Shown here one piece after another: positions 1 through 56,971 of a stretch of 64,000 nt of DNA. The DNA is from Patescibacteria group bacterium (GTDB taxonomy: Bacteria; Patescibacteriota; Minisyncoccia; Phycocordibacterales; Phycocordibacteraceae): contig JAIETW010000001.1 of NCBI GenBank assembly GCA_019744845.1, forward strand, positions 177,999-241,998, read 5' to 3'. How positions within the stretch are numbered: the stretch's first letter is position 1; every line of letters starts with the position of its first letter. Below the pieces are notes generated by a model that did no database searches, was not told the DNA's origin, and was given only the letters and a program-made list of their open reading frames with translations. The translations under genes were made by a program, and so were the position numbers.

Positions 1-2506
1 CACGTTCGTACCACCAAGAAGAGTTTCAAGTTCTCCGATTGTATCTATCTCCGTCGCAAGAATGACATTCACTGAGCCGAGGAGTGTTTCAAGTTCACTG
101 GTGGAATCTATTTCTGTGGAGACGATAAGGTTCACGCCGGTGAGCGCCTCAAGTTCTGACACCGTATCAATTGAAGTCGTAGAAACTTTATTGTTGAACA
201 GACTCCAATCTGCAGACGCAAGGAATCCTGGCTGTGAACCGTTTGCCTTCTGACCATTTACGTAATCAAGAGAGACAAGTCCAGATGCTGCGTCAAAGTC
301 ATTTGCGGTAAAGGTGGCAGCGCCCTTAGTCGTACCGTCTGCTGCGGCGTTGTTGATTGAGACGGTGCCACCAGAGAACGAAAGCGGGGTAGCAAAAGTA
401 GTGCTTGCGGTCCACGTAGGAACGCCGTTAAGAAGTGCGAGCACCTGTCCGTTGGTTCCTGCTGTGGTGGTGGAAAGTGATCCTGTGCCATTTCCGTAGA
501 TGAGTGCGCCTGACTGAATGTTCGTCCATCCCGTACCTCCACGAGCAACCGTGAGTGTCCCTGTGGTGCCAGTGACAATCGGAAGTGCGCTTGCGTCTGA
601 AAGATCAAACGCAGGAGTTGCGTCTGATCCACCAAGTGAAAGCGTCACGCCACCAAATGAAATGCTGGAGTTCGTAAGTCCTGCATTGTTGAGCGTGCCC
701 GTGATGCTTGGTGAAAAGGTTTGCGTATTTCCTGATCCTACAATCGTCGTGCCGAGTGTAAGTCCATTGAAAGATCCTGTAGAAGTAGCGAAAGTAACGG
801 TTGGACCAGAAGAGGTTTGTCCTGTCGGACCAATTGCAGTTACACCGCCCGCTGAAAGTCCAAGCGAGGAAGTGGCGGTAAGCGTGTAGCCGCCGCTACT
901 GTTTCCCACAAGGAGCTGTCCGTAACTTGGTGCACTCGTCAGTCCTGTGCCGCCATAGAGCACTCCGATAGAAGACGTTGCAGACACTACCCCTGCGTTT
1001 GCCTGCAGTGGACCATTCAGACTTCCAACGGTGACTCCACCAGAGAATGTTTGTCCAGTAGTGAAGGTGTTTGCGGTGTACGTTTTTGGAATCGTTGAAG
1101 AACCGTGTATGAACGCCTGGACGGTACTTGCAAAGTCAGAGATCGTTGAGGCAAGCTGCGTTCCTGTTTGATTTGCACGAGCGAGGTAGTAGCTTCCCTC
1201 CTGTCCATCAAACGTTCCCGTCCAGTCTCCCGTCGTGTTGATGGTAAGAGCACCACCGACGTTTTGAAGTCCTGTACCGGTGAGGTCAGTGAAGGTTTCG
1301 CTGTTGAGGCCGAGTGCTGTGGTCGTTGCCTGCGTGAAGATACCAGTGGAGGGAGTGCTTGCACCGATTGGGGTGTTGTTGATCGTGCCACCAGAGATGG
1401 TGAGTGCGTCGGTCACTTGGCCGTCGGTGGCGGAGCCAGTGAGGTCCGTGAAGTTAAGCCCAAGAGAAGAAGTGGCGACCTGCGTCCATCCTGTACCACT
1501 TGAGTTACCTACCAAAAGTTGGTTTGCAGTGACTGAAGAGATTCCTGTACCTCCACGGCCGGACGCAAGTACTCCAGACCAGGTGGAGGTATACGTGTGA
1601 GTACTTCCGGAAGAGGTGATGGTAAGACCGATGTTCGTGTCCGAGGAGGTGGCGAAGGACTGAGACGTCGCGACAAGTCCGTTCAAAGAAGTGATTCCTG
1701 AACCACCGCCTCCGGTGAGACAGGAACCGTTGACGGAAATACAACCACCAGTGATTTCAATACCGTTGGCGAACGTAGAGGTGGCAGTGGTGCTGGTGAT
1801 AGTCAGTGCATTTGCTTCTACGTCTCCATCGGCATCTACCGTGAACACATCCGTGCCTGCAGAGTTCTGAATTCTAAAGAGCTTTGCAATCTGTCCAAGA
1901 ATGCCGCGAATGGAAATACCTGTACTTTGAGTTGAAGTTGCTTCTACTGAAACGACTGAGGTGCCAAAAGGACTCGTCGTACCAAACGAAGATGGAGTAG
2001 AGGATCCGCTCACCGATGCGGCCACACGTGCAAACGGTGTCGCGCTCACACGCTGACGTGGGGAGAGCGTTTGGAAGCTACTGTTGTCTGAAGATACTTC
2101 TACCTGAAGATAGACATCCGCATTGTTGGCGAAGTCGTAATCAAGCGCATGAGGGAATCCGTTTGCGGTGTCTCCGATCTGTGCGGTGAACACCCCAGCA
2201 CGAACAGTCACCGGAAATGAGGTTGGACCGCTCGCAGGCCATACCTGACTACCACTCCCAACCGTAGGGTTATTCCAAAGAGAAAACTTTACGTAGTACG
2301 TCGTACCAGTGCCACCCAAAAGGTTTCCACTCGCATCAGAGAGTCGGCCCTGGTATCCGATGATTGAGGGGACGGCGGCTGTTGCAGTCTGCGGCATGAA
2401 AAATCCCCCGAATACCGCGAGAAGGAGGAGCACCGCAACCTGCCGAGAAAGTGTGTGTGTGTTATAGAAAAAGGGTGCCCCCGCAAAAGCCTTCAAAACT
2501 CAGGAT
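1..2506 (-). CDS. Large secreted Thr/Ser/Gly-rich repetitive surface protein. It is partial: the C-terminus lies beyond the window start. The start is either TTG at 2506 or ATG at 2398.
   Basis: I translated the third minus-strand frame by hand from 2506 to position 1 without meeting a stop. The N-terminus reads as a signal peptide (K/A/F start, LLLLAVFGGFF hydrophobic core, ATAAVP cleavage-like site). The body is Thr/Ser/Gly-rich with recurring units such as LLVGNSSGTGWTQVATSSLGL, VARGGTGWTNIQSG and GQLLVGNSSGGYTLTATSSLGL. The last in-window residues carry three copies of EID(S/T)xxELE(T/A)LLGxxNVI. It is absent from the ORF track because no in-window stop exists. Confidence 0.55.
18..205. 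repeat. Three imperfect tandem copies of a ~63-bp unit inside the surface-protein gene, encoding the EIDxxxELExLLG repeat
   Basis: Direct reading: the unit tttcaagttc..g..g.atctat.tc....... recurs at about 22-84, 85-147 and 148-205, with conserved blocks caagttc and atctat. Confidence 0.55.
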
Positions 2507-3797: not shown

Positions 3798-6491
3798 TTA
3801 TTCTACACGTACCGTAAAGCGAGGGTTAATTACCTTCCCTTCGTGGAAGAATTCGCCGAAGACCGTGTAAAGACCAGGACTTGGAAAGAGCACGTGCGCT
3901 TCTACCACGGGACCGAAGGTTGGTGGAGGCGGTAGGTGCGTGTGTGCGGTCGTAGAAGATACTTGAGTGACTGGTGCACCAAGTGGATGCACTTCTCCAT
4001 GGGTGTGTATGAACTCAGAGAGATCGTTCTTCACCACCGCAAGGTGCATCGCAGCAGCCAAGTATGGCTCCATGTTCAGTACATCCTCTCCGTCTTTAGT
4101 AATGCGGTAGGTGAGTGTGGTGTAGGAGTTTGCGAGCGGCAGCGGGGAGCGGAGAGTGACATCGTATCCATCAAAGCTTCCTTCCGAAGGATAGGTGGCA
4201 ATGTCATTCATCGCTGCATTCCCTTTTACGGTAATCGTGTACGTACGACTCTCCTGCTTCAGTCCATGCGCATAATCAATCGCAAGGATGTAGGTACCGG
4301 CACGTGGAAAGGTGAAGCTCCGTTCAAAGCGAGGAGCATTTGATTCATCATCAGGGTGCACGTGGAAGAATTCTTTCATATCTGCACTCACAATCACCAT
4401 ATGCACGAGCTTCTCGTGTATGACTGAGAGCACGGCAGGCTCTCCATCTGCGTCATTAATCGTGTATTCAAAGGTCACGGGAACTCCTGCAGTGATATTC
4501 GTGAGGTCGTTTGCGAATGCAATCTCTGATCCTGTCTGGGACTTCAGATACCGATACTCTCTCGCATCAGAGATGTGGAAGGAACCACCGAGCGCCATAC
4601 ACCCTTCCTCTGCGACTGAGGACACCGGAATGCCGTTACGTGCAGGAAGCATGACGTGCCAGCCATTCCCGTCTGCCAGACATTCCTTCTTGAATGAGTT
4701 CCCAAAGAGGTACTGGAGTGCCCCGATTATTTGGCTCAGGATTAACAGAGTGACAATGAATGCAATTCCATACCTGAAGACTGAATTACGCTCCTGTAGC
4801 GGCGGATATGGGCCTCTAACGAGCCTTGCAAGGTATATAGCGGCAATGATGCTAAGAATTGCGAGCGCCATCATCACCAGGGTGAAGAGATCTATGTCTC
4901 TTCCCTCGTCTTTAATGAAATCTGCCTTGGTGACGGTAAATGTTGCCCGTGCATCGTAGCCACTTTCCTGGGGCTGGATAACGGAGAGTGTGTGCGTGCC
5001 ATTGGTGATGAGAGCAAGAGGGAATACGTATCCCCCATCATATCTGCGCTCAAGCTCTAGAAGCGTTCCCTCTTCGCTTCCACCGTCTAGAGAGACGGTC
5101 GGCATGACCTTCCCTTCACTTGTAAGGAGTACCTTCTCATCCTCATGTGGTGCAGGCGCGACCGCGATCTCTATTCCCTGGTCGCGTACCGAGTATGCTG
5201 GCTGCATGCCATGCAGTGGTGGTGAGGTGATGATCATGAGTGAGGAGAAGAAGATCACCAGCACTCCTGAAGCGAACTCTGCGGGCAAGGTGTAAGACAG
5301 GAACTTACTGAACCACTGCGGACGGTATCGGTGCGCGATGAGGTGATACGCAAGAAGTGCAATTGCGACTATGAGGGATGCAGCAAGCGGAAGGAATCGC
5401 TCTCCCCAGAGAGTCGTGGAGATATTGGCAAAGTCTTTCAAGTGAAGCCAGATGATGTAAGCGCCGGTAACTCCTGCAAGACCGAAGGAAAGCGCGAGGA
5501 GTGAGAACGCTCGTGGGAATACGTCTCGGAGCTTCTCTCTGAAGGTTCTCCAGAGATACGCGACGGAGAGAATGCCGATGATTCCCTCCCACAAATCTTT
5601 TCCAATGAGATGGAATACGTTTACGAGTACACCAAGATCAGGAAGGAAGCTGCTTGCGGTCGCGTGACTTACCTTTGCGCGGTAGTACGCAAAGACAAGA
5701 AGAAGTGCAAAAAGAATCCATTCAGAGGTCGTGAACTTCTCTGCAAGCTGTATCACCTTCTTCCGGAAGAAGAACACGACTCCAATCAATGCTCCTGCGA
5801 TCATTCTGATTACCGTTGCTGATCCTGAGACTATCGCGAAGTAGAGCGAAAGCGCTTCCGCAAATGGAATCTGATTTAGATCTGCCAGTTCACTCGTTTT
5901 TAGAATGATGTGTCCCCCGCCACCAATGAGAATGAGAAGGACGCCAAGTGCAATGAAGAACGCGTACCCCTTCCGTACCAGTGCATCCTCTCGGTACTTT
6001 CTGAATACAGAGGCAAAGAGCACAATCACTCCCCATAGAATGGAGTTCCCAAGAAGCTCCACGAATATCATGAACGCCTCTGGTACTGCAGAGATCTGCA
6101 CCACCTCAAAGGAAGAAGAGTTAGAGGAAGGAATGGCAATGCCTTCTCCTATCACATACGCATATCCTCCCTTGGTGAAGTGTCCGTCGTCAGAAGACAC
6201 CACACTCCACGAGACAAAGTACGCACCGTCTTCTGCCGATGCTACTGGCACACTGAGTACATAGGGATTCTCTTCTACGACTGCCTCTCCAGTCGTGATC
6301 TCTGTCCCTGCATCGTCTTTTACCTGTATACGACTTGCCCCTGGCTCTACTCGCTCACTGAAGCGAATAGATACTTCGGTGGGCGCTTCGATGAGTACCG
6401 CGGAAGACTCTGGCACATACTCCACGGGAGTGGCGTGTGCAGACACGCCAAGCGGGAGGAGAATGATGAGTGTGATAAGTAGTGTTTTCAT
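3798..6491 (-). CDS. Copper transport/resistance fusion protein CopC-CopD with a C-terminal YtkA-like domain (YcnJ-like architecture)
   Basis: 897 aa. Signal peptide, then a CopC-like beta-sandwich whose mature N-terminus is H (SAHATPVEY) and which carries the VSWSVVSSDDGHFTKGGYAYVIG motif. This is followed by about 8 transmembrane helices (CopD-like). The C-terminal soluble His-rich region carries FFHVHPDDE and EFIHTHGEVHP. Confidence 0.6.
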   Translation of the reverse strand: MKTLLITLIILLPLGVSAHATPVEYVPESSAVLIEAPTEVSIRFSERVEPGASRIQVKDDAGTEITTGEAVVEENPYVLSVPVASAEDGAYFVSWSVVSSDDGHFTKGGYAYVIGEGIAIPSSNSSSFEVVQISAVPEAFMIFVELLGNSILWGVIVLFASVFRKYREDALVRKGYAFFIALGVLLILIGGGGHIILKTSELADLNQIPFAEALSLYFAIVSGSATVIRMIAGALIGVVFFFRKKVIQLAEKFTTSEWILFALLLVFAYYRAKVSHATASSFLPDLGVLVNVFHLIGKDLWEGIIGILSVAYLWRTFREKLRDVFPRAFSLLALSFGLAGVTGAYIIWLHLKDFANISTTLWGERFLPLAASLIVAIALLAYHLIAHRYRPQWFSKFLSYTLPAEFASGVLVIFFSSLMIITSPPLHGMQPAYSVRDQGIEIAVAPAPHEDEKVLLTSEGKVMPTVSLDGGSEEGTLLELERRYDGGYVFPLALITNGTHTLSVIQPQESGYDARATFTVTKADFIKDEGRDIDLFTLVMMALAILSIIAAIYLARLVRGPYPPLQERNSVFRYGIAFIVTLLILSQIIGALQYLFGNSFKKECLADGNGWHVMLPARNGIPVSSVAEEGCMALGGSFHISDAREYRYLKSQTGSEIAFANDLTNITAGVPVTFEYTINDADGEPAVLSVIHEKLVHMVIVSADMKEFFHVHPDDESNAPRFERSFTFPRAGTYILAIDYAHGLKQESRTYTITVKGNAAMNDIATYPSEGSFDGYDVTLRSPLPLANSYTTLTYRITKDGEDVLNMEPYLAAAMHLAVVKNDLSEFIHTHGEVHPLGAPVTQVSSTTAHTHLPPPPTFGPVVEAHVLFPSPGLYTVFGEFFHEGKVINPRFTVRVE

Positions 6492-17997: not shown

Positions 17998-18891
17998 TTG
18001 CCCCGCCGAAGACAGGTATACTTACAGAATAGTATGGCGATAGCGCTCCGACAACTCTCCCCGGACGAATATCCGCAGGGACTCCGAGAAATTCCAAAGC
18101 CACCAGAGAAACTCTGGATGCTTGGAGAGTGGGCGCCGAAGGGTACGAAGTACCTCACGGTGGTCGGTTCTCGTGCCGCCACACCCTATGGAAAAGAGAT
18201 GTGCACGAAACTTATTCAAGGATTGAAGGATTACCCCGTCTCCATTGTTTCCGGGCTCGCACTCGGTATAGACGCGATCGCACATAAGGCTGCACTGGAT
18301 GCCGGCATGCACACGATTGCCGTTCCCGGCTCAGGACTTTCAAGTAATGCGATCTATCCAAGGAGTAATGCAGAGCTTGCGAAAGATATTCTCACCAAGG
18401 GTGGTGCACTTCTCTCTGAACACGAGCCAGATCACAAAGCAGAGATCCGTGACTTCCCTTCACGTAACCGAATCATGGTCGGTATCTCTGATGCCGTGCT
18501 CATGATTGAAGCCGGAGAAAAGTCTGGCACCCTCATTACCGCGCGACTCGCAGGGGAATACAACAGAGATCTTCTCTGTGTCCCACATCGTGCAGGAGAC
18601 CCACATGGATTTGGTTCGCATCTTTTCATCCGCCTTGGTGCCGCACTAATAACTGAACCTAAACACATTCTTGAAGCACTCGGTATTCCTGAAGAGCGTA
18701 ATGGTCCACTAATGCTTCCGCTTCTAGACGGAATAGAAAAGGATATCTATGGCATGCTCCATGCCCCACTCACCAAAGCAGATCTCCTTCGCAGACTTGA
18801 AGGGAATGAAGATCAGGCAGAGTCCGCACTCGTGACTCTAGAACTCAAAGGCCTTATAAAGGAAGGTATGGGTATGTGGCAACGCGTATGA
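17998..18891 (+). CDS. dprA: DNA processing protein DprA/Smf
   Basis: Rossmann-like DprA core (VVGSRAATPYG...GLALGIDAIAHKAAL). Confidence 0.8.
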   Translation: MPRRRQVYLQNSMAIALRQLSPDEYPQGLREIPKPPEKLWMLGEWAPKGTKYLTVVGSRAATPYGKEMCTKLIQGLKDYPVSIVSGLALGIDAIAHKAALDAGMHTIAVPGSGLSSNAIYPRSNAELAKDILTKGGALLSEHEPDHKAEIRDFPSRNRIMVGISDAVLMIEAGEKSGTLITARLAGEYNRDLLCVPHRAGDPHGFGSHLFIRLGAALITEPKHILEALGIPEERNGPLMLPLLDGIEKDIYGMLHAPLTKADLLRRLEGNEDQAESALVTLELKGLIKEGMGMWQRV

Positions 18892-19394
18892 AATGGATAG
18901 GCATTAGCGGAAGCCAGAAGGTAAACGAGGAGATGGAACAGGATGTCCGAAAGGACGTTCAGAACATCCTCGCTGAGGGTAACGGCATATTGGTTGGAGG
19001 CGCCTTGGGCGTAGATTCCTTTGCCCTAGAGGAGGCGCTCTCCATAGACCCTGAAGCGCACTATATAAAGGTATATCTCCCTGCCACCCTAGAACGCTAT
19101 GCCGCCCACTACCGACGCCGTGCAGAGGAAGGAGTAATCTCCAAAGACCAGGCCGAAACCTTGATCGGACTCCTCACCAAAGCCAAGAATGACCATGCCG
19201 TTTCCTTTACGGAACACCCTGAAAACACGGAAATGAATCAAACCACCTACTACGAGCGAAACAGCGCAATCGTTTCCGCAGCTGATGAAATACACGCCTT
19301 CCAATCTAATAACAGCAAGGGCACACAAGACACCATAGATAAGGCGAAGACAAAGGGTATTCCAGTCATCGTGTACTCGTATTCAGTCTCCTAA
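18876..19394 (+). CDS. DprA/SLOG-like Rossmann-fold protein, hypothetical
   Basis: 172 aa. ILVGGALGVDSFALEEAL resembles the DprA/SLOG nucleotide-binding core. Confidence 0.35.
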   Translation: MATRMKWIGISGSQKVNEEMEQDVRKDVQNILAEGNGILVGGALGVDSFALEEALSIDPEAHYIKVYLPATLERYAAHYRRRAEEGVISKDQAETLIGLLTKAKNDHAVSFTEHPENTEMNQTTYYERNSAIVSAADEIHAFQSNNSKGTQDTIDKAKTKGIPVIVYSYSVS

Positions 19395-21833: not shown

Positions 21834-23447
21834 ATGACTCCCGTCAAAGAGATTCTGGCGGAAATGCAAAACCCCTCTGCGGAGGATATTAAGCTCATAG
21901 AAAAAGCCTATGCCTTTTCCCAGAAGGCGCATGAGGGCGTGACCCGGTACTCAGGTGAGCCCTATTTCATACACCCTGCCGCAGTCGCCAAGATCCTTGC
22001 CCAGATGGGTATGGACGCAGCAACAGTCGCTGCAGGACTTCTCCATGACGCTATTGAAGACGCCAAGGCAACCGAAGAAGAAGTACAAAAGGAATTCGGA
22101 GACGAAGTCCTCTTCCTCGTAGACGGCGTCACCAAACTTGGAAAGCACAAGTACCGCGGAGCAGAACGGCACGCCGAATCGCTTCGTCGTTTGCTTGTGG
22201 CTACCTCCGCAGACATTCGCGTACTCATTGTGAAGCTCGCGGATCGTTTCCATAACATGACGACCTTGGCACACGTGCCAGAACATAAGCAAAAGCGCAT
22301 TGCACTGGAGACGCTGGAGATCTATGCCCCGATTGCGGACCGTCTTGGTATGGGTCGTATTCGTCGTGAGCTTGAGGATCTTGCCTTCCCGGCAATTGAT
22401 CCAGACGCATACCAGCACGCGCTTGAGGTACGTAAGTTAAAGACCAAGGAAACTGAGGTTGGTCTTAAGAAAGTGCAGCGTGAAATTCAGGAAGCACTCG
22501 CCAAGCAAGGTATTAAAGACTTCCGTACGGACGTCCGCATGAAAGGACTTTGGAGTCTGCACCAGAAGCTGAAGCGTAAGGGAGATGACATCACTCTTAT
22601 CTACGACATGGCAGCGCTCCGTATCATCGTGCCCACAGTCGCTGACTGTTACGCCGCCCTCGGTCTCATCCACTCACTCCACAAACCACTTCCGGGAGGA
22701 TTTAAGGACTACATCTCTGTACCGAAGCCTTCAAGCGGTTACCAGTCCCTTCACACCACCGTGGTGACTGATGGTGCAGGCATCGTGGAGATTCAGATCC
22801 GCACTAAAGAAATGCATCAGCAGGCAGAGTTCGGTATTGCCTCACACGGTTCCTACAAACTCCTTGGCCCTGCGGCAACGCAAGGTGCCGTTCGCAACAT
22901 GTCACTCCCCTGGATTCAGAATCTTATTCCGAACCTCCTTAACTTCACGAAGAAGGCACCAGGAAAAGAAGCACCTGCGAACGTACCTCGCTGGATCACT
23001 GAACTCGCTGAAGCGCATGCGGGTAACACCGGCTCTACTGAGTTTGTAGAAGGACTAAAATCTGACTTCTTCTCACACCGTATCTTCGTCTTCACGCCTC
23101 GTGGAGACGTGATTGACCTTCCTATCGGTTCTACGCCTATAGACTTCGCCTATGCGATCCACAGCGACCTAGGAGACCATATGAATGGTGCCAAGGTGAA
23201 TGGAAAGCTTGTCTCATTTGATACGACCATTGAAAACGGTGACGTGGTAGAAATCATCACCCGAGAATCCGCACGCCCAACGGCAAAGTGGCTTGATGTC
23301 GCCGTCACCTCTATGGCACGCAGACACATTCGTGGCGCACTAGAACTCTCTGAACGCAGACTTCCTTCCGCCCCAATGAAAGTAGATACTCGTGTGCTCC
23401 GCAAGAAAGCGAGCAAAGAAGGAAAGAAAAAGAAAGGAAAAGGTTAA
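21834..23447 (+). CDS. rel: RelA/SpoT-family (p)ppGpp synthetase/hydrolase lacking the C-terminal ACT/RRM region
   Basis: HD domain (HDAIED), synthetase domain (RIIVPTVADCYAALGLIHS, GYQSLHTTV), TGS domain, then a short K-rich tail. 537 aa. Confidence 0.8.
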   Translation: MTPVKEILAEMQNPSAEDIKLIEKAYAFSQKAHEGVTRYSGEPYFIHPAAVAKILAQMGMDAATVAAGLLHDAIEDAKATEEEVQKEFGDEVLFLVDGVTKLGKHKYRGAERHAESLRRLLVATSADIRVLIVKLADRFHNMTTLAHVPEHKQKRIALETLEIYAPIADRLGMGRIRRELEDLAFPAIDPDAYQHALEVRKLKTKETEVGLKKVQREIQEALAKQGIKDFRTDVRMKGLWSLHQKLKRKGDDITLIYDMAALRIIVPTVADCYAALGLIHSLHKPLPGGFKDYISVPKPSSGYQSLHTTVVTDGAGIVEIQIRTKEMHQQAEFGIASHGSYKLLGPAATQGAVRNMSLPWIQNLIPNLLNFTKKAPGKEAPANVPRWITELAEAHAGNTGSTEFVEGLKSDFFSHRIFVFTPRGDVIDLPIGSTPIDFAYAIHSDLGDHMNGAKVNGKLVSFDTTIENGDVVEIITRESARPTAKWLDVAVTSMARRHIRGALELSERRLPSAPMKVDTRVLRKKASKEGKKKKGKG

Positions 23448-48433: not shown

Positions 48434-48463
48434 AACACCTCGGAGCTCCCGAGGTGTTTTTGT
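48434..48463. terminator. Bidirectional rho-independent terminator between the convergent S1 gene and pth
   Basis: AACACCTCGG-agctc-CCGAGGTGTT perfect 10-bp stem, followed by TTTTTGTT on the + strand and TTTTCTTT on the - strand. Confidence 0.55.
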
Positions 48464-49065
48464 TATCGCGTATTGGCGTGCATCGTTGCCCTCTCAAGTC
48501 CGTCAGTGACAAAAAGCGTTGCGGCTTCTACTCCTTTCTTGAGTGCTTTTTTGAGTGTCGCTTCTTCTGCGGGCGCAAACTTCCCAATCACGAGCTTCAC
48601 CACCCCGTCGTCACTTCCTGGCTTCTTGGCTTGATTCTTCTTCCCTGCCTTAGAGACTCCGATCTTAAGCTGCGCGAATTCCTTGGTCCCAATCGCACGC
48701 ATCACGGACTCTACGCCATGGTGTCCACCTGCACCGCGCCCGAAGGTCATCTTGATCACTCCTAACGGAAGATCAATGTCATCACGCACGACGAGAAGCT
48801 CCGCTGCTGCTTTCTTTGACTTCACAAACGTCTTTGCCGCTTTTCCAGAAGTGTTCATGTATATCTCGGGAAGTGCGAGGAGTGCTTTTTGCTTTCCGAG
48901 CTTTCCTTCAGACACTAGAGAAGGCACGCCTCCTGCTTTGCGGAGGGTGAATTCGGGAAAGTCTTCCTTCTTTGCAAGGAGCTCTACGAGCATGCGGCCT
49001 GCATTGTGACGGGTCTTTTCATATTCTTTACCAGGATTCCCAAGACCGAGGATGACGTAGGACAT
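48463..49065 (-). CDS. pth: Peptidyl-tRNA hydrolase
   Basis: MSYVILGLGNPG...TRHNAG N-terminus. The longer track ORF (to 49224) is a spurious extension. Confidence 0.8.
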   Translation of the reverse strand: MSYVILGLGNPGKEYEKTRHNAGRMLVELLAKKEDFPEFTLRKAGGVPSLVSEGKLGKQKALLALPEIYMNTSGKAAKTFVKSKKAAAELLVVRDDIDLPLGVIKMTFGRGAGGHHGVESVMRAIGTKEFAQLKIGVSKAGKKNQAKKPGSDDGVVKLVIGKFAPAEEATLKKALKKGVEAATLFVTDGLERATMHANTR

Positions 49066-49105
49066 GCGGAGAAGTATATCGTGCTTCAGGGGTATACTGA
49101 TAGTA

Positions 49106-49456
49106 ATGCCTTCAGGAGAACCGTGGAGACCAGGTGTGGAAACCCTCCGCACCAGAGAAAAACAAAAAGAAGACCGGCTGTGGACCACGCTTGAGGGGCT
49201 GGGTATCACCCGCGACGACATCACCCCCGGTCAGAAGAACAGTCAGCCACTCTCACGCATCCTTGAGATAGCGGATCTCCTGCTTCAAGGGAAGTTTCCA
49301 AAAGATATTGCACCGCAGTTTAATCTTGCCGCGACCACCATTCACCACATACGAAACACTCGTTTTAGCTCTCGTCTCCAAAGCCTGATTTATAGGAGAC
49401 AACGAGAAGTACAAGCATCTACGCGGCAAAACGAATCAAAAAGAGCAAAAAGTTGA
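49106..49456 (+). CDS. Possible small HTH-containing protein; weakly supported
   Basis: DIAPQFNLAATTIHHIRN resembles a helix-turn-helix. Start adjusted so it does not overlap the pth start. Confidence 0.2.
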   Translation: MPSGEPWRPGVETLRTREKQKEDRLWTTLEGLGITRDDITPGQKNSQPLSRILEIADLLLQGKFPKDIAPQFNLAATTIHHIRNTRFSSRLQSLIYRRQREVQASTRQNESKRAKS

Positions 49457-49478: not shown

Positions 49479-50060
49479 ATGCTCCCAATGTCCTTCTTTG
49501 CTCGCGTGAAAGATTTCACTGGAAACGTGTCAAAAGAAGTTATTCTCCTCGTGCTGCTCGTCGTGTTGATTGTGCTCCCCATTCGCTTTTTTGTTGCGCA
49601 GCCCTTTGTCGTGCGTGGTGAGTCTATGTTCCCTACCTTTGATAACGGGGACTATTTGATTGTGGACGAGATTTCATATCGTCTCAGCGACCCTAAGCGT
49701 GGTGAGGTGGTGGTGTTTAAGTATCCAAACGATCCTTCCGTCTTTTATATTAAGCGTGTGATTGGTCTTCCTGGAGAGACCGTACGTATCAGCCGAGGTG
49801 AAGTGACCGTAGAGAAAGTAGATGGAAGTGAGATTGTGATTCCAGAACCCTACGTGGTCACTGAAGACGCGACCTACACCCTTGAACGCACTCTTGGCAC
49901 CGGTCAGTACTTTGTCATGGGTGACAATCGCCCGAAGAGTTCTGACTCTCGCGTCTGGGGTCCGCTTCCTGAAGAGAACATCATGGGTCGCGCTTTCTTG
50001 CGCCTTCTCCCGTTTGAAGATGCAGAGATCTTCCCGGGTGCAATTCAACAACTGCAATGA
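49479..50060 (+). CDS. lepB: Signal peptidase I
   Basis: Catalytic box VRGESMFPT, YIKRVIGLPGE, and C-terminal GDNRPKSSDSR. Confidence 0.8.
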   Translation: MLPMSFFARVKDFTGNVSKEVILLVLLVVLIVLPIRFFVAQPFVVRGESMFPTFDNGDYLIVDEISYRLSDPKRGEVVVFKYPNDPSVFYIKRVIGLPGETVRISRGEVTVEKVDGSEIVIPEPYVVTEDATYTLERTLGTGQYFVMGDNRPKSSDSRVWGPLPEENIMGRAFLRLLPFEDAEIFPGAIQQLQ

Positions 50061-51196
50061 GTACTACCCTTGAACCGATTGATATCGTAAAGCGCGCGCA
50101 CGCGATTGGTACCTACTATGGCTTCACACCGTTTAAGCATGTCGCCAAGCGCGGACTTAAAGCACCTGCGGGATACCCTGACTCACTTCAGCTTGACGCA
50201 CTAGATCCAGTTGCTCGTGAAGTTGCTGGCTTTCTGAAGCAGGTACGTGACTCAGGTGCCGCACCCGCACCGGGTCGTCCTCTCTTCCTCTGGCACACGA
50301 ATGCGGCGGCAGGACGCACCGCACCAAAGCAGATCATCATTCAGTTCCATGCCATTGGTGCAGATCGTGCGATTGCGGATGTTGTCCTTATTCGTGCCGT
50401 ACGCTCTCTCATTGCTGATCTTTCAAAAGAAGAAGGAGTACTTCGTATCAACTCTATGGGAGACAAGGAGACTCGTGGACGTCTTGCACGTGAACTTACC
50501 TCCTTCTTTCGGAAGAATGGCCCCACACTCCCTGCAGACTGTGTCGCCTGCGCAAAGAATGACGTGTTTAAGGCAGCAGAACTTCTTGAAGGAGAAGAGG
50601 AGCGCGGCAGCCTTCCCTCTCCTACTGATCACTTGTCTGAAGCGAGTCGCAAACACTTTGAATCGGTTCTTGAATATCTTGAATCAACCGAGACTCCCTA
50701 TGAGCTTGCACCGTCTATGCTCTCTCGCGGCAATGCATGGACTGAAACCTGCTTCTCTATTGAGACCCCTGATGGCCGTGTGAAGGCATGGGGCTCTCGC
50801 TACCATGATCTTGCAAAGCCGTTCTTTAAGGGCACGGGGCCTTCCGTTGGTGCCGTCGTGCGTATCAACACCGATGCACGTGCGGTGATCCCTCCTCATA
50901 AGGAGCGTGCGAACCCCCGCTTTGTCTTCGTGCACATTGGCGACGAAGCGAAGCGTGAATGTATGAAAATGGCTGACCATCTTCGTCGTGCCCGCATTCC
51001 TATGATGCAGTCCATTGGCGTAGAATCGCTCACGGAGCAGATGCGCCTTGCGGAAGACACCAACCCCCGCTACCTCATCATCATGGGCCGTAAGGAGGCA
51101 CTGGAGCGCTCCGTGATCCTCCGCGAGCGTTCTACCCACTCCGAAACCTCCATTTCCTTTGATTCTTTGGTGGACCAGCTCCGGGCAGTTGCCTAA
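50057..51196 (+). CDS. Histidyl-tRNA synthetase-like paralogue (HisZ-like) with degenerate motif 2 and a retained class IIa anticodon-binding-like domain
   Basis: GRTAPKQIIIQFHAIGADRA aligns with the HisRS motif-2 end (kGRyRqFhQfGvEviG), but the FRYERP portion is replaced by LWHTNAA. It has the HisRS-type LRINSMGD block (l.iNslG) and a C-terminal PRYLIIMGRKEALERSVILRER domain (anticodon-binding fold). The N-terminal ~50 aa, including motif 1, are absent. Confidence 0.5.
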   Translation: MSTTLEPIDIVKRAHAIGTYYGFTPFKHVAKRGLKAPAGYPDSLQLDALDPVAREVAGFLKQVRDSGAAPAPGRPLFLWHTNAAAGRTAPKQIIIQFHAIGADRAIADVVLIRAVRSLIADLSKEEGVLRINSMGDKETRGRLARELTSFFRKNGPTLPADCVACAKNDVFKAAELLEGEEERGSLPSPTDHLSEASRKHFESVLEYLESTETPYELAPSMLSRGNAWTETCFSIETPDGRVKAWGSRYHDLAKPFFKGTGPSVGAVVRINTDARAVIPPHKERANPRFVFVHIGDEAKRECMKMADHLRRARIPMMQSIGVESLTEQMRLAEDTNPRYLIIMGRKEALERSVILRERSTHSETSISFDSLVDQLRAVA

Positions 51197-51227
51197 GTAG
51201 AGGCCTACGTGCTAGTATCCTCGGACT

Positions 51228-51488
51228 ATGGTTAACGCAGTACGTGTAGAAGTGAAGCGCGGAAAGAATGAGAGCTCAGCCTCTCTTATTCGCCGTTTCT
51301 CTCGCCGGGCCCAGGGCCTTGGCCTTGTGCGTGCCCTTCGTAAGCGCCGCTACTATGCTCGCCAGAAGTCCAAGAACGTAGATCATGCGCGTGCCCTCGT
51401 GAAGAGCGCCCGCCGCGTGCAGTACAACGAGGATGTGAAGCAGGGCAAGATTGATCCGGCAGCCCAGTCTCGCGGTCGCAGGAAGTAA
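51228..51488 (+). CDS. rpsU: 30S ribosomal protein S21
   Basis: VEVKRGKNES..LIRRFSRRAQ..LRKRRYYARQKSKN pattern, typical of S21. Confidence 0.7.
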   Translation: MVNAVRVEVKRGKNESSASLIRRFSRRAQGLGLVRALRKRRYYARQKSKNVDHARALVKSARRVQYNEDVKQGKIDPAAQSRGRRK

Positions 51489-51496
51489 CTAGTCCG

Positions 51497-51937
51497 ATGA
51501 AGGGCCTCTCTACACGAAATCTCACCCGGCGCTCTGTGCCGGGTGTTCCTTTTACGAAGATCGCCAAAGCGGTGCTTCCTACCTGGGAGCTCTCGCTCGT
51601 CTTTGTGACTCCTGAAGAAGCGAAGCGTCTTAATAAGACACTCAGAAAGAAAACCTACACACCGAATGTTCTTTCATATGAGTCCGCCCCGAAGAGTGGT
51701 GAGGTGATTATTTGTCTTTCGGTTGCGAAAGAACAAGCACCTGAATACGGCCTTCCCTATGCCGCATTTGTCGGATTATTGTTTATCCACGCATTACTGC
51801 ATTTGAAAGGAGAGCGACACGGCACTACAATGGAGAAACGAGAGCGGGCACTCCTTGCCCGGTTCGTATCTATTCCCACATGGCCCGACGAATCTCAACA
51901 GGCATTGACATCGGCACGTACCAAACGAAGGTCGTGA
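51497..51937 (+). CDS. ybeY: rRNA maturation endoribonuclease YbeY
   Basis: HALLHLKGERH metal-binding motif (H..H.....H). Confidence 0.7.
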   Translation: MKGLSTRNLTRRSVPGVPFTKIAKAVLPTWELSLVFVTPEEAKRLNKTLRKKTYTPNVLSYESAPKSGEVIICLSVAKEQAPEYGLPYAAFVGLLFIHALLHLKGERHGTTMEKRERALLARFVSIPTWPDESQQALTSARTKRRS

Positions 51938-53052
51938 TGGTAGAGGAGGTGCAGGGTACTGACGGCCCTGGACTTCGCGTCATTGGTACTGGGGTCTCTG
52001 ATACCGCCGGCATGCGCCAGGGCTACGTCGTTGATGTAGACGATGTCGCGGAGAGCGTACGCAAAGCAAAGCGTCAGGCTGAGCAGATGGCCCGTGTGAA
52101 CATACGTTCCGGCTTCCTCGCGATTGGTGGCATCTCTCTTGATGAGACCCGTGCAAGCGGCACCGCTATTATTTCTCGCGCCGACGCAGAGGTGACTGAG
52201 CTTGATATAGAGAAGGCACAGGATTCTGCACGTCAGGCTGCCTCCCCTGCATTTTTGAATCGTCGCATCCTTCACGAGATTCCTCTTGGCTACAGCGTAG
52301 ACGGCGTGAAGTCTCTTGGTGAGCCAGTCGGAATGAAAGGTACACGTCTTGAAGCAGAGTTTCTTTTTGTGACTTGTCTTGAAAGTCATGTAGATGCACT
52401 TACGAATGCGGTAGAGAACGCAGACATTGAAGTCGTGGATTGCATGGCCTCTCCTCTTGCCGGCTCCTATGTCACGCTTGCCAAGGATCAGAAGATGAAA
52501 GGCTGCGTGCTTGCGAACATTGGAGCCGAGACTACCTCTATTGTGGTCTATGACGAGGGCGTCCCAGTGTCAGTGAAAGTGTTCCCTGTGGGTTCAAGCA
52601 ATATTACGGATGAACTTGCGCTTGCCTTCCGTGTGTCTCTTGAAGATGCAGAGCGTATTAAGCTCGGACGCCTCTCCGGTGCTATGTATCCAAAGAAGAA
52701 AGTGGATGACATTGCACTCTCAAAGAGCAAGATGATGTTTGATTACATTGATAAGCATTTGAAGGCCATCGGGAAACGCGGTGCACTTCCTGCCGGCGTT
52801 ATTTTGTCAGGCGGAGGCGCGGGACAAAGTTCTATGGTTGATATTGCAAAGGCGCAGCTTGCACTGCCCGCGCGCGTCGCCGACATTCGTGTCGCTGCCG
52901 ATGCAAAGATGAAAGATGCCACCTGGGCCATTGCGTACGGACTCTCCCTCTGGGGCCTCACCGGCGAGACTCGTGTTGGTTCTTCTCAGAAAGCATCTTT
53001 CAAGGAGATGAAGGGCTCACTCTCCCGCTTTTTCCGTCAGTTTCTTCCATAA
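51880..53052 (+). CDS. ftsA: Cell division protein FtsA
   Basis: Actin-fold phosphate-1 motif GIDIGTYQTKVV at the N-terminus. Overlaps the ybeY 3' end by 58 nt in another frame. Confidence 0.85.
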   Translation: MARRISTGIDIGTYQTKVVMVEEVQGTDGPGLRVIGTGVSDTAGMRQGYVVDVDDVAESVRKAKRQAEQMARVNIRSGFLAIGGISLDETRASGTAIISRADAEVTELDIEKAQDSARQAASPAFLNRRILHEIPLGYSVDGVKSLGEPVGMKGTRLEAEFLFVTCLESHVDALTNAVENADIEVVDCMASPLAGSYVTLAKDQKMKGCVLANIGAETTSIVVYDEGVPVSVKVFPVGSSNITDELALAFRVSLEDAERIKLGRLSGAMYPKKKVDDIALSKSKMMFDYIDKHLKAIGKRGALPAGVILSGGGAGQSSMVDIAKAQLALPARVADIRVAADAKMKDATWAIAYGLSLWGLTGETRVGSSQKASFKEMKGSLSRFFRQFLP

Positions 53053-53095
53053 TATTACGGAACAGTATTGACAAAGGGTCAACCTTTGCAAACCG

Positions 53096-53130
53096 TTCTA
53101 CCCTGTTATGATGATGCCTAGTTTACGGGG
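53096..53130 (+). promoter_or_regulatory. Putative sigma70-like promoter for ftsZ
   Basis: TTGCAA, a 16-nt spacer, then TATGAT, about 30 nt upstream of the ftsZ start. Confidence 0.25.
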
Positions 53131-53160
53131 GTAAGCTGTTAGTAGTTACAAATATTCATT

Positions 53161-54387
53161 ATGTCTAAGCGCGTTGTGCCGGAAATTGAGACCTTCGCCC
53201 GCATTCGGGTCGTCGGTGTCGGCGGTTCAGGATTGAACGCCGTGAATCACATGATCAACTCCAAGGTGAAGGGGGTTGAGTTTATTGCCATTAACACGGA
53301 TGCTCAGGACCTTCACCGCTCTCTTGCCAAGCGCAAGATCCACATCGGCAAGAACCTCACTCGTGGTCTTGGTGCGGGAATGAACCCAGACCTGGGTCGC
53401 CGTGCCGCAGAAGAGACTCGTCAGGAAATCCAGGAAGCACTTCAGGGTTCTGATATGGTCTTCATCACCTGTGGTATGGGTGGTGGAACGGGAACGGGTG
53501 CCTCAGCGGTGATCGCGAAGATTGCAAAAGAGATGGGCTCACTCACGGTCGCCGTCGTCACTCGTCCATTCTCTTTTGAAGGTGCACAGCGCAAAGACAT
53601 TGCGGACCGCGGTCTCTCTGAACTCAAGAAGGAAGTAGACGCCTTCATCATCATCCCCAACGACAAACTCCTTGCGATTGTGGAGCCAAACACCACTGCC
53701 AAGAGCGCCTTTGCGCTTTGTGACGAGATCCTTCGTCAGGCAGTAGAAGGTGTCTCTGACATCATCACCACCCCCGGTGAAATCAACACTGACTTCAACG
53801 ACATTAAGGCGATCATGGAAGGCGCCGGCCCTGCCCTTATGGGTATCGGTATTGCCGATGGTGACAAGCGTGCAGAGACGGCAGCAATGCAGGCAGTTAA
53901 CTCTCCCCTTCTTGATGTCTCTATTGCAGGCGCAAAGGGTGTGCTCTTTGTTGTCGCAGGAAACGAAGACCTGGGTATTCTTGAAGTGCAGGAGGCTGCC
54001 AAGGTGGTCTCTGAATCCGTTGATAAGAGCGCGAAAGTTATCTTCGGTATCATGCGCGACGAGAAGCTTAAGAAGGGTCAGATCCGCATCATCGTCATCG
54101 CAACCGGTTTCCCTGAAGGCGCTGGGGAGTCAGGCGGCATGGGCATGGCAGAGCGCTCTCTCTTCTCGTTGACTCCAAAGGAGCAGACCGATACTCGTGG
54201 AAAGATCTACAATGACGTCGTGAAGCGCGAGGAGGAGGTAGTAGAAGAAGCTCCAAAGAAGAAAGAGGAGCCAATTGTGACTGCGACTCCACAGAAGCGC
54301 GAGGAGACACGCCCGGTTACTCCCGTCGTAGAAGAGGACGATGGCTTCGGTGTCATTCCTTCTTTCCTTCGTCGGAATAAGAAATAA
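53161..54387 (+). CDS. ftsZ: Cell division GTPase FtsZ
   Basis: GVGGSGLNAVN, tubulin signature GGGTGTG, and a T7 loop. Confidence 0.9.
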   Translation: MSKRVVPEIETFARIRVVGVGGSGLNAVNHMINSKVKGVEFIAINTDAQDLHRSLAKRKIHIGKNLTRGLGAGMNPDLGRRAAEETRQEIQEALQGSDMVFITCGMGGGTGTGASAVIAKIAKEMGSLTVAVVTRPFSFEGAQRKDIADRGLSELKKEVDAFIIIPNDKLLAIVEPNTTAKSAFALCDEILRQAVEGVSDIITTPGEINTDFNDIKAIMEGAGPALMGIGIADGDKRAETAAMQAVNSPLLDVSIAGAKGVLFVVAGNEDLGILEVQEAAKVVSESVDKSAKVIFGIMRDEKLKKGQIRIIVIATGFPEGAGESGGMGMAERSLFSLTPKEQTDTRGKIYNDVVKREEEVVEEAPKKKEEPIVTATPQKREETRPVTPVVEEDDGFGVIPSFLRRNKK

Positions 54388-55786: not shown

Positions 55787-56971
55787 ATGCCCTCCTTCTC
55801 CATGAAGCCTTGTGCCGCCTGTGGTGGTGCCACTGTAAGCCATGCGGCGATCTGGGTCTCTAACTCAGGTGACATGGTTGCGCTCGGATTTGCCGGGCTC
55901 CGTACTACGTGGATTGTGCGGACTCTGTCAGGAATTGGAGAATGGGCATTGTCGCTTCTTGGTCATCTCGCCTTTCATATCGCACGCATCGTGGGTGCCG
56001 TATCACTGAGCGATGACTTTTCAAAAGTACGGAGTGATCGCGCCCGCGTTATGTGGGAAGATGCGCTCCGTCGTGGAATCCCCATGGAACAACTCTTTCT
56101 ATTTGGAGCCCCTGCAGATACGTACCGTATTCGTATACACGGAAAGACCTATTTCGTTGACAGCATTCCTACCCCACCGAAGAAACAAAAAGAAGCACTC
56201 CACATAGACGATAAGATTTCGTTTAAGGCGATATTGAGGAAGGCAGGTATCGCCACTCCACGTAGCATCGGCACTACCTCTCTCAGCACCGCGAAGAAGA
56301 CTCTGAAGGAGTTTGGGACTGTGTGTGTAAAGCCACGATATGGCTCTAACGGATATCACACGTATCCTTTTGTGAAGACCGAGAAAGAGCTTGAAGATGC
56401 GTTCAAAAGCGCAAAGGAGCTCTGCTACATGGTGAGTGTGGAGGAGCATCTGGAAGGAAATGTATGTCGCGCTACCTGTATTGATGGGAAACTTGTAGGA
56501 TTTCTAGAATCACAGTACCCAACTGTCGTCGGCGATGGGGTGCATACCGTTGCAGAACTCATACAGAAGAATAACGAGGCTCGTCGTGACGGCGTGGCGG
56601 AAATTGTGGTGAACTATATGCACGAAGGCTATATCGGTCGTCGTGGCTATACACTTGAGAGCGTGCTCCCTGAAGGAGTATCTCTTCCTCTCACCTATCG
56701 TGCAGGGAGCAGCTCAGGCGGGAGTAACCGAGAATACGGCCGGAATATTCATCCGTCATTCATTCCGATCATTGAGCACGCAGCCGCACTTACCGAACTT
56801 CCTATCGTTGGGTTTGATTTGATCATCAAAGATCCACTCGCCTCCGCAGATTCACAAGCCTGGGGCTTTATTGAAGCCAACTCACTTCCCTGGATTAATC
56901 TCCATCACACACCATTTGAAGGTGAGCCAGTCAATGTCGCCACACACGTCTGGGATCTCTGGAAGGATTAA
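55787..56971 (+). CDS. ATP-grasp-fold ligase (cyanophycin-synthetase/RimK/Ddl-like). The N-terminal start is uncertain; it is possibly the internal Met near 56058.
   Basis: VCVKPRYGSNGYHTYPFVKTEKELE, followed by a Gly-rich SSSGGS loop and IVGFDLIIKD, typical of the ATP-grasp central and C-terminal domains. Confidence 0.5.
   Translation: MPSFSMKPCAACGGATVSHAAIWVSNSGDMVALGFAGLRTTWIVRTLSGIGEWALSLLGHLAFHIARIVGAVSLSDDFSKVRSDRARVMWEDALRRGIPMEQLFLFGAPADTYRIRIHGKTYFVDSIPTPPKKQKEALHIDDKISFKAILRKAGIATPRSIGTTSLSTAKKTLKEFGTVCVKPRYGSNGYHTYPFVKTEKELEDAFKSAKELCYMVSVEEHLEGNVCRATCIDGKLVGFLESQYPTVVGDGVHTVAELIQKNNEARRDGVAEIVVNYMHEGYIGRRGYTLESVLPEGVSLPLTYRAGSSSGGSNREYGRNIHPSFIPIIEHAAALTELPIVGFDLIIKDPLASADSQAWGFIEANSLPWINLHHTPFEGEPVNVATHVWDLWKD

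Follow-up and report, generated by a model that had tools for sequence, protein, structure and literature searches.

We analysed a window of 64,000 nucleotides from a Patescibacteria group bacterium (positions 177,999 to 241,998 of contig JAIETW010000001.1, assembly GCA_019744845.1), and in particular a gene at 50057..51196 on the plus strand that encodes a 379-aa relative of histidyl-tRNA synthetase (HisRS). We refer to this degenerate hisS orthologue as pseudo-HisRS; its description draws on the open reading frame (ORF), a colinear alignment to canonical HisRS of the candidate phyla radiation (CPR), an AlphaFold2 (AF2) model and the ratio of nonsynonymous to synonymous substitution rates (dN/dS). 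Immediately upstream on the same strand is lepB (signal peptidase I; 49479..50060; Pfam PF10502, E 2e-47, and synteny), a conserved neighbour whose stop codon overlaps the start of the pseudo-HisRS gene in the 4-nt sequence ATGA (50057..50060), an arrangement suggesting translational coupling. The identical overlap is present in seven related loci (L001-L007). Downstream, also on the plus strand and supported by ORFs, Pfam and synteny, a conserved segment (51228..54387) contains rpsU (S21; 51228-51488), ybeY (51497-51937), ftsA (51880-53052) and ftsZ (53161-54387). A further conserved member of the upstream cluster is pth (peptidyl-tRNA hydrolase; 48463..49221, minus strand; ORF and Pfam annotation of the syntenic gene). 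An earlier first-pass annotation, made from the sequence alone, had described the gene as a HisRS-like paralogue between lepB and rpsU-ybeY-ftsAZ, and ORF coordinates and Pfam matches agree with this placement.

The protein contains all of the HisRS-specific blocks that the first-pass annotation had pointed out, namely QFHAIG (residues 96-101), LRINSMGD (129-136) and the C-terminal PRYLIIMGRKEALERSVILRER (337-358). A Pfam scan reported only the class IIa anticodon-binding domain (ABD; PF03129, residues 292-376, E 6e-8) and did not detect PF13393 (tRNA-synt_His). Against the NCBIfam hisS equivalog TIGR00442, the window protein scores 85.6 bits with a cut-off of 286.75, and the match begins only at profile position 125. 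This model was nevertheless the best for all of 53 diverse family members, with a best E-value of 4.6e-68 and a best score that we estimate at about 230 bits, which is under the cut-off. By sequence, the closest solved structure is HisRS of Staphylococcus aureus, at 58 bits, compared with 328 bits for a canonical enzyme encoded at the same chromosomal position. Structure prediction, which had been proposed as a check, gave an AF2 model with a predicted local distance difference test score (pLDDT) of 90.3, whose top structural matches are bacterial HisRS; the model thus predicts a HisRS fold with confidence.

The catalytic motifs persist only as remnants, all on the plus strand (residues of HisRS are numbered as in Escherichia coli unless stated otherwise). 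The earlier claim that the motif-1 region is lacking was right for the N-terminus, where about 25 residues including the RGxxD segment are missing, and wrong for motif 1 itself, since a remnant, IVKRAHAIGTYYGFTPF (residues 10-26; 50084..50134), aligns with the canonical motif and contains G22 and F23, which are invariant throughout the family. Alignment to canonical CPR HisRS shows the TDIVxKEMY loop to be about 12 residues shorter as well, and the TxE residues to be gone. As had been noticed, the FRYERP part of motif 2 is gone: an in-frame deletion of about 7 residues excises the FRHERPQ core, and the remnant LFLWHTNAAAGRTAPKQIIIQFHAIG (50282..50359) has lost R113, E115, F125, Q127 and E131. 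The insertion-domain region (50441..50683; dN/dS 0.011) keeps the signature blocks LRINSMGD and LSEASRKHFESVLEYLE; NPLRILDxK is absent. In the HisA remnant MLSRGNAWTETCFSI (50717..50761), the catalytic R259 is replaced by S and Y263/Y264 by A/W. The HisB remnant WGSRYHDL (50789..50812) is followed by the motif-3 remnant PSVGAVVRINT (50840..50872), in which GxGxGxER and R311 are lost.

These losses are a property of the family rather than of one protein, as a comparison of residue frequencies in 327 degenerate and 135 canonical CPR-type sequences demonstrates. R113 (motif 2), R259 (HisA) and T85 occur in 0% of degenerate and 100% of canonical sequences, with G or S at position 259 of the former; Q127 falls from 99% to 0%, R311 (motif 3) from 100% to 5%, E83 from 100% to 20%, and Y263 and Y264 from 100% to 15% and 29%, respectively. 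E131 is found in 20% of the degenerate family, where H is more frequent (57%). By contrast with these positions, HisB is kept, with G285 at 100%, R287 at 99% and Y288 at 84%. Also lost are the contacts to the acceptor end, which in the Thermus thermophilus complex are made by E114, R115 and K209 (PMC4357726). Of the 94 positions at which canonical HisRS is conserved, the family retains only 24, all of them structural and none catalytic. Residues at the replaced positions change from one part of the clade to another, and subclades have motif-2 loops of different sequence and length. A canonical motif 2, HisA or motif 3 was found in none of 270 family sequences checked. The least decayed members (P0197, P0229 and P0150) keep the fragments LRPD and LER, which is consistent with stepwise decay after release from catalytic constraint. 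Sequences that had seemed "intermediate" proved to be canonical enzymes that carry FRHDxPQ/RGLSYY variants. In sum, the protein lies below the TIGR00442 cut-off and lacks motif 2, HisA, motif 3 and the TxE, Q127 and E131 residues of a functional HisRS. Judged by the loss of these essential class II and HisRS residues, pseudo-HisRS almost certainly cannot aminoacylate, in agreement with the initial expectation.

The canonical CPR-type HisRS used in this comparison have a feature of their own in the insertion domain. Several of them (L093-L097, e.g., L095:5926-7209) contain a Cys-rich pattern, LCxDCxxR…NPLRILDCKxxKC…HLCxxC, that from its sequence looks like a metal-binding site. The pattern is mostly lost in the degenerate proteins, and the window protein retains DCVAC only.

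The C-terminal domain has fared very differently. The class IIa ABD (HGTP_anticodon; 50915..51193) had been described as intact, and both the PF03129 match and its conserved side chains confirm this. In the complex with tRNA, E388 of the T. thermophilus enzyme reads G34, F383 and Q404 read U35, and K397 reads G36 (PMC4357726, PMC11363354). We verified this numbering against 1adj/4rdx through a hand-written Thermus-like ABD peptide, which served as a search device and is not data. The corresponding segment of pseudo-HisRS, IIMGRKEALERSVILRERSTHSE (51077..51145), places I342, G344, E347, R356 and E363 at the positions of T. thermophilus F383, G385, E388, K397 and Q404. Among the 327 degenerate sequences, E391 is present in 100%, R or K at the K400 position in 100%, G388 in 99% and I386 in 97%, while the U35-reading Q407 position is divided between Q (61%) and E (39%). 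The family thus possesses, as a functional HisRS does, a class IIa ABD with residues for reading GUG (T. thermophilus E388, K397 and Q404), and the segment GQKEALExxVIVRNMxxRxQE is near-identical between canonical CPR HisRS and degenerate proteins. Conservation of the ABD is 0.55 in the degenerate family versus 0.47 in canonical HisRS. The TxE, motif 2 and HisA regions behave in the opposite way: they are the most conserved regions of real HisRS (0.65-0.73) and the least conserved of the degenerate family (0.26-0.48). Constraint has therefore shifted from the catalytic regions to the ABD. The isoelectric point, which is basic at about 9 in both groups, does not differ between them.

To establish the descent of the gene, we compared its position with that of canonical hisS genes in related organisms. 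The latter were retrieved by scanning a metagenome collection with patterns from a chimeric alignment, in which canonical motif 2 and HisA were grafted onto family backbones so that the patterns match only true HisRS; this alignment is a search device and not data. Canonical enzymes that come closest to the window protein are CPR-type HisRS of about 427 aa with all motifs present. At least 12 canonical CPR-type hisS genes sit directly downstream of lepB and upstream of ftsA/ftsZ, and a canonical hisS between lepB and rpsU/yqeY/ybeY/ftsA/ftsZ is found at L095, L175-L178, L181-L184 and at least 11 further metagenome loci. In L095, the order according to Pfam is lepB, hisS (PF13393, E 1e-38), a small ORF, yqeY, ybeY, ftsA and ftsZ, and four more canonical loci, on contigs of 44-683 kb, have the order pth, lytR, lepB, hisS, (HIT), rpsU, yqeY, ybeY, dgkA, ftsA, ftsZ. 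The degenerate gene fills this slot at 87 related loci as well as in the window, and so does the partly decayed P0197. Even members that are only about 30% identical (P0197, P0143 and P0459) have it there, and the window's extended order gyrA…S1-pth-lepB-X-rpsU-ybeY-ftsA-ftsZ-trxB is shared at this level of identity. In a neighbour-joining tree, 71 degenerate sequences are monophyletic, with slot-type canonical CPR HisRS as their sister group. Slot position and this sister relation place the gene by descent in the Paceibacteria hisS orthologous group.

The lepB-rpsU-ybeY-ftsAZ neighbourhood is therefore the ancestral hisS locus of this bacterial class, and the gene is a positional orthologue of hisS that has been inherited vertically within one organismal clade and has lost catalysis. 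Two suggestions of the first-pass annotation do not survive this result. The gene is not an additional paralogue, because it occupies the ancestral hisS slot and is sister to the slot-type enzymes. In addition, the translation and cell-division neighbourhood had been taken as a hint of function; since canonical hisS occupies the same slot in related CPR genomes, the neighbourhood carries no new functional message.

The gene content of the cluster differs somewhat between the two groups. The hisS-ftsA cluster of canonical-slot loci L175, L177, L181 and L183 retains some members, or all, of a trio consisting of a HIT-family (HinT-like) gene, yqeY and dgkA. In the degenerate clade (window positions 51197-51940, L001, L185 and L186), all three are absent from the cluster, and may have been lost or may have moved, perhaps together with a functional hisS. 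One lineage of the degenerate clade (L001-L004) carries an inserted PemK/MazF-type toxin gene that separates ftsA from ftsZ (at about 13170-13556 of L001).

The family is large. More than 1000 database proteins match the window protein, and the best 120 of these are about 380 aa long, 65-96% identical and derived from metagenome-assembled genomes of Patescibacteria/Paceibacteria. An exhaustive search of 50%-identity representatives yielded, at E <= 1e-30, 202 clusters whose identity reaches as low as about 25%. With just two subfamily-specific peptide patterns, the gene was located in 221 GTDB species genomes, all of them Patescibacteria. In the distant half of the degenerate clade, the labels include Kaiserbacteria, Wolfebacteria, "Pacebacteria" and Parcubacteria. 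Public names are in conflict (e.g., for P0013, P0111, P0143, P0409, P0458, P0496 and others), and include histidine--tRNA ligase, ATP phosphoribosyltransferase regulatory subunit, His/Gly/Thr/Pro-type tRNA ligase C-terminal domain-containing protein and hypothetical protein. In a 2022 review, HisZ is the sole paralogue listed as derived from HisRS (PMC9437257), and we found no description of a degenerate HisRS family in the literature. The family is thus a pseudoenzyme derived from an aminoacyl-tRNA synthetase, which is a known type of protein, in a form for which we found no published account.

We consider it probable that the hisS gene of a large Paceibacteria clade has become a vertically inherited, non-catalytic pseudo-synthetase that binds tRNA-His, or RNA with a GUG loop, without charging it. 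The protein keeps the HisRS fold and, most strongly, the C-terminal ABD, including its side chains for reading the GUG anticodon of tRNA-His; the sites for ATP and for histidine are lost, as are the contacts to the acceptor end. The ABD would then bind, without charging it, tRNA-His or some RNA whose loop resembles a GUG anticodon, and the protein could serve as a tRNA-His-specific binder, sensor or escort, or as a partner without catalytic activity. A role in tRNA or RNA binding had already been proposed for this gene, and the retained anticodon-reading residues make it the best-supported suggestion. Because the clade cannot lose HisRS activity without a replacement, another HisRS is expected, and we infer that a separate functional enzyme is encoded elsewhere in these genomes.

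It is important to consider several observations that count against this hypothesis. In tblastn searches, queries with HisRS of E. coli, L095 and L101 found no HisRS other than the gene itself in the window or in 92 clade loci (1.55 Mb), which cover about 20 kb (±10 kb) per genome and always the same neighbourhood around the gene; the E. coli query agrees with the residues of PDB 1kmm. Similarly, no contig is common to degenerate and canonical proteins among the 120+120+120 proteins listed. RNA binding by pseudo-HisRS is something that we infer from conserved residues, and the window subfamily has E, not Q, at the U35-reading position. In this subfamily, the loop that replaces motif 2 is strongly conserved (F77, W79, H80, N82, G86, R87 and P90), and some ligand may therefore bind where the active site used to be. 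Degenerate proteins have also lost the class II motif-1 proline, which makes dimerisation uncertain. Finally, the neighbour-joining tree is a simple one without support values, in which the degenerate family is on a long branch.

We also looked for potential replacement enzymes and for the presumed RNA ligand. Canonical CPR-type hisS genes do occur outside the slot, adjoining frr in L101/L179 and near rel in L129/L188. The L101/L179 gene (rseP-frr-hisS) is not supported as the relocated hisS of the clade, as there is no frr in the window or clade loci. The L129/L188 gene (rel…hisS-spoU) could not be tied to the clade either, as the ClpB and Rel proteins encoded with it are no closer to those of the window than are those of canonical-slot lineages. 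L110 belongs to a Gram-negative organism (lpxB, lpxK), and L106 does not group with CPR-type enzymes. A tRNA-His gene, sought for its identity elements, was not found in 2.3 Mb of retrieved loci, and an Rfam scan of the window detected tRNAs and no other known RNA elements. As a separate observation, a Moranbacteria-like lineage (L101:306-1652, L179:10001-11338 and L180) has its canonical CPR-type hisS in the arrangement rseP-frr-hisS-amidohydrolase, which shows that relocation or duplication of hisS has occurred in this class.

Four other explanations deserve attention. The missing catalytic motifs, and a protein that is about 45-50 residues shorter than canonical HisRS, could suggest a decaying pseudogene or a hisS that was mis-called or interrupted by a frameshift. 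However, the window protein aligns colinearly and in a single frame with residues 26-423 of canonical CPR HisRS (E 1e-34), with clean in-frame deletions, and 14 codons upstream of the ATG there is an in-frame stop; no correction of the start or of a frameshift restores motifs 1, 2 and 3, which would have made the gene a true hisS. The ORF is intact in at least 221 species, and the structural model is confident. Compared with the 96%-identical orthologue in L008, dN/dS is 0.032 (0.05 in the core, 0.011 in the insertion domain and 0.026 in the ABD), i.e., about 0.03 in every domain, and the same genome pair gives 0.029 for ftsA, 0.026 for pth and 0.042 for lepB. Pseudo-HisRS is therefore under strong purifying selection, equal to that on ftsA, pth and lepB, and the intact ORFs, single-frame alignment and dN/dS refute decay or mis-calling, to which we assign practically no chance. 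That the protein is a regulatory subunit of ATP phosphoribosyltransferase of the HisZ type (TIGR00443), a name given to relatives in some public records, is also highly improbable. HisZ is likewise a HisRS-derived bacterial protein that does not aminoacylate, there are weak sequence matches to it, and the catalytic-domain folds are similar. However, HisZ works in histidine biosynthesis as the partner of short-form HisG and typically has no ABD, whereas pseudo-HisRS has a full ABD with anticodon-reading residues and sits in the hisS locus. The only match of the window protein to a HisZ model is to NF008942 (E 0.11, 11 bits, with a cut-off of 643), and alignment to both families, a check that had been advised, favoured hisS over hisZ models in all 53 members tested. 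Scanned ORFs of the window (positions 37-56 kb having been covered by synteny) and Pfam-annotated flanks of related loci yielded neither hisG nor any other gene of the histidine pathway, and the first-pass annotation had also noted no hisG in the vicinity of the gene. Its view that the protein is not a classical HisZ is supported, and by both sequence and structure pseudo-HisRS is nearer to HisRS than to HisZ.

The other two explanations accept that the protein is functional. One is that it is the cell's only HisRS, with a radically remodelled active site or a separate catalytic partner. This idea could draw on the location in the hisS slot, a constraint like that of essential genes, the intact anticodon-reading residues and the lack of any other HisRS in the clade DNA read. 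The window subfamily's own conserved replacement loop could be added, where G86-R87 may equal E. coli G120-R121. However, the essential class II/HisRS arginines R113, R259 and R311 are absent along with the histidine-binding residues, and a selected active site would be conserved throughout the clade, whereas these positions, and the length of the motif-2 loop, are variable. P0197, P0229 and P0150 look like steps of decay following catalytic release, and the apparent lack of another HisRS is based on about ±10 kb per genome. We therefore regard a sole HisRS as unlikely. If the clade did lack any other HisRS, it would make His-tRNA-His by an unprecedented mechanism, alone or with a partner, or charge tRNA-His by a non-homologous route, and we view such an outcome as very doubtful. 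The remaining explanation is a non-catalytic structural subunit, whose ABD serves mainly for protein-protein contacts as in the accessory subunit of mitochondrial DNA polymerase gamma; for example, the protein might form a heterodimer with a true HisRS or another enzyme, with tRNA binding incidental or lost. We take this to be rather improbable, because conservation in the protein is highest at the side chains making base-specific contacts to G34, U35 and G36, a pattern that is hard to explain without anticodon binding. In addition, the anticodon segment is near-identical to that of canonical CPR HisRS, and no conserved partner gene adjoins beyond the ancestral cluster.

Returning to the hypothesis of a non-charging tRNA-His binder, we compared it with previously characterised systems. 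The closest is the CPR/Paceibacteria-type HisRS itself, a class IIa enzyme encoded between lepB and rpsU, with which pseudo-HisRS shares its slot. Unlike this enzyme, pseudo-HisRS lacks R113, E115, R121/F125/Q127/E131, R259/Y263/Y264, R311, the TxE motif and the N-terminal RGxxD segment, and it is not expected to activate histidine. The best functional analogy is GCN2's HisRS-like domain, a pseudoenzyme with catalytic-like and anticodon-binding domains that senses deacylated tRNA, and that keeps the HisB GGRYD while having lost the HisA Arg and Tyr and the ATP- and His-binding residues (PMC11363354). Pseudo-HisRS likewise keeps HisB (G285 and R287) and has lost R259, Y263 and Y264. However, GCN2 is eukaryotic and its HisRS-like domain is fused to a kinase and a C-terminal domain, while pseudo-HisRS is a stand-alone bacterial protein; moreover, GCN2 has lost the decoding side chains and binds tRNA non-specifically, whereas pseudo-HisRS retains these side chains. 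The two arose independently. The polymerase gamma accessory subunit (class IIa-like) and SLIMP (SerRS-like) are also cases of a class II synthetase scaffold that remained under selection after the loss of aminoacylation. These differ in that they have another parent synthetase, are eukaryotic or organellar, and originated by duplication rather than by conversion in place.

These results have consequences for annotation. In phylogenetics, hisS is widely used as a marker. For many Patescibacteria, automated annotation and metabolic reconstructions count the degenerate gene as HisRS (K01892/COG0124) or as HisZ, and both assignments appear wrong for a clade with hundreds of species. The locus is also a rare case in which the resident gene of an essential aminoacyl-tRNA synthetase, and not a relocated duplicate, was converted in place into a conserved pseudoenzyme. 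Such a conversion requires functional replacement by another HisRS, or something stranger. Constraint as strong as that on ftsA or pth suggests an important function linked to tRNA-His in these ultra-small symbiotic bacteria, and if our hypothesis is true, the protein would be a bacterial, stand-alone, tRNA-His-specific counterpart of the HisRS-like sensor in GCN2.

The rest of the window is an ordinary Patescibacteria chromosome, with serS, topA, rel, clpB, infB, gyrA, purT/K/E, miaA and dus, in which a few further observations can be made. Two adjoining ORFs at 18034-19394 (285 aa and 168 aa, with a 4-nt overlap) both belong to the DprA family (DNA_processg_A), and could be a tandem duplication or a fragmented dprA. 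The Rel/SpoT homologue at 21834-23447 is short (537 aa), with HD, synthetase and TGS domains; no C-terminal regulatory domains were detected. On the minus strand, an ORF of at least 799 aa without a Pfam match runs off the end of the window (1-2397), and an 897-aa ORF (3798-6491) has an N-terminal CopC domain only; both are probably surface proteins typical of CPR genomes. Just 3' of trxB, a 394-aa ORF without a Pfam match (55787-56971) is fast-evolving, being 72% identical to its L008 orthologue versus 92-99% for all neighbouring genes.

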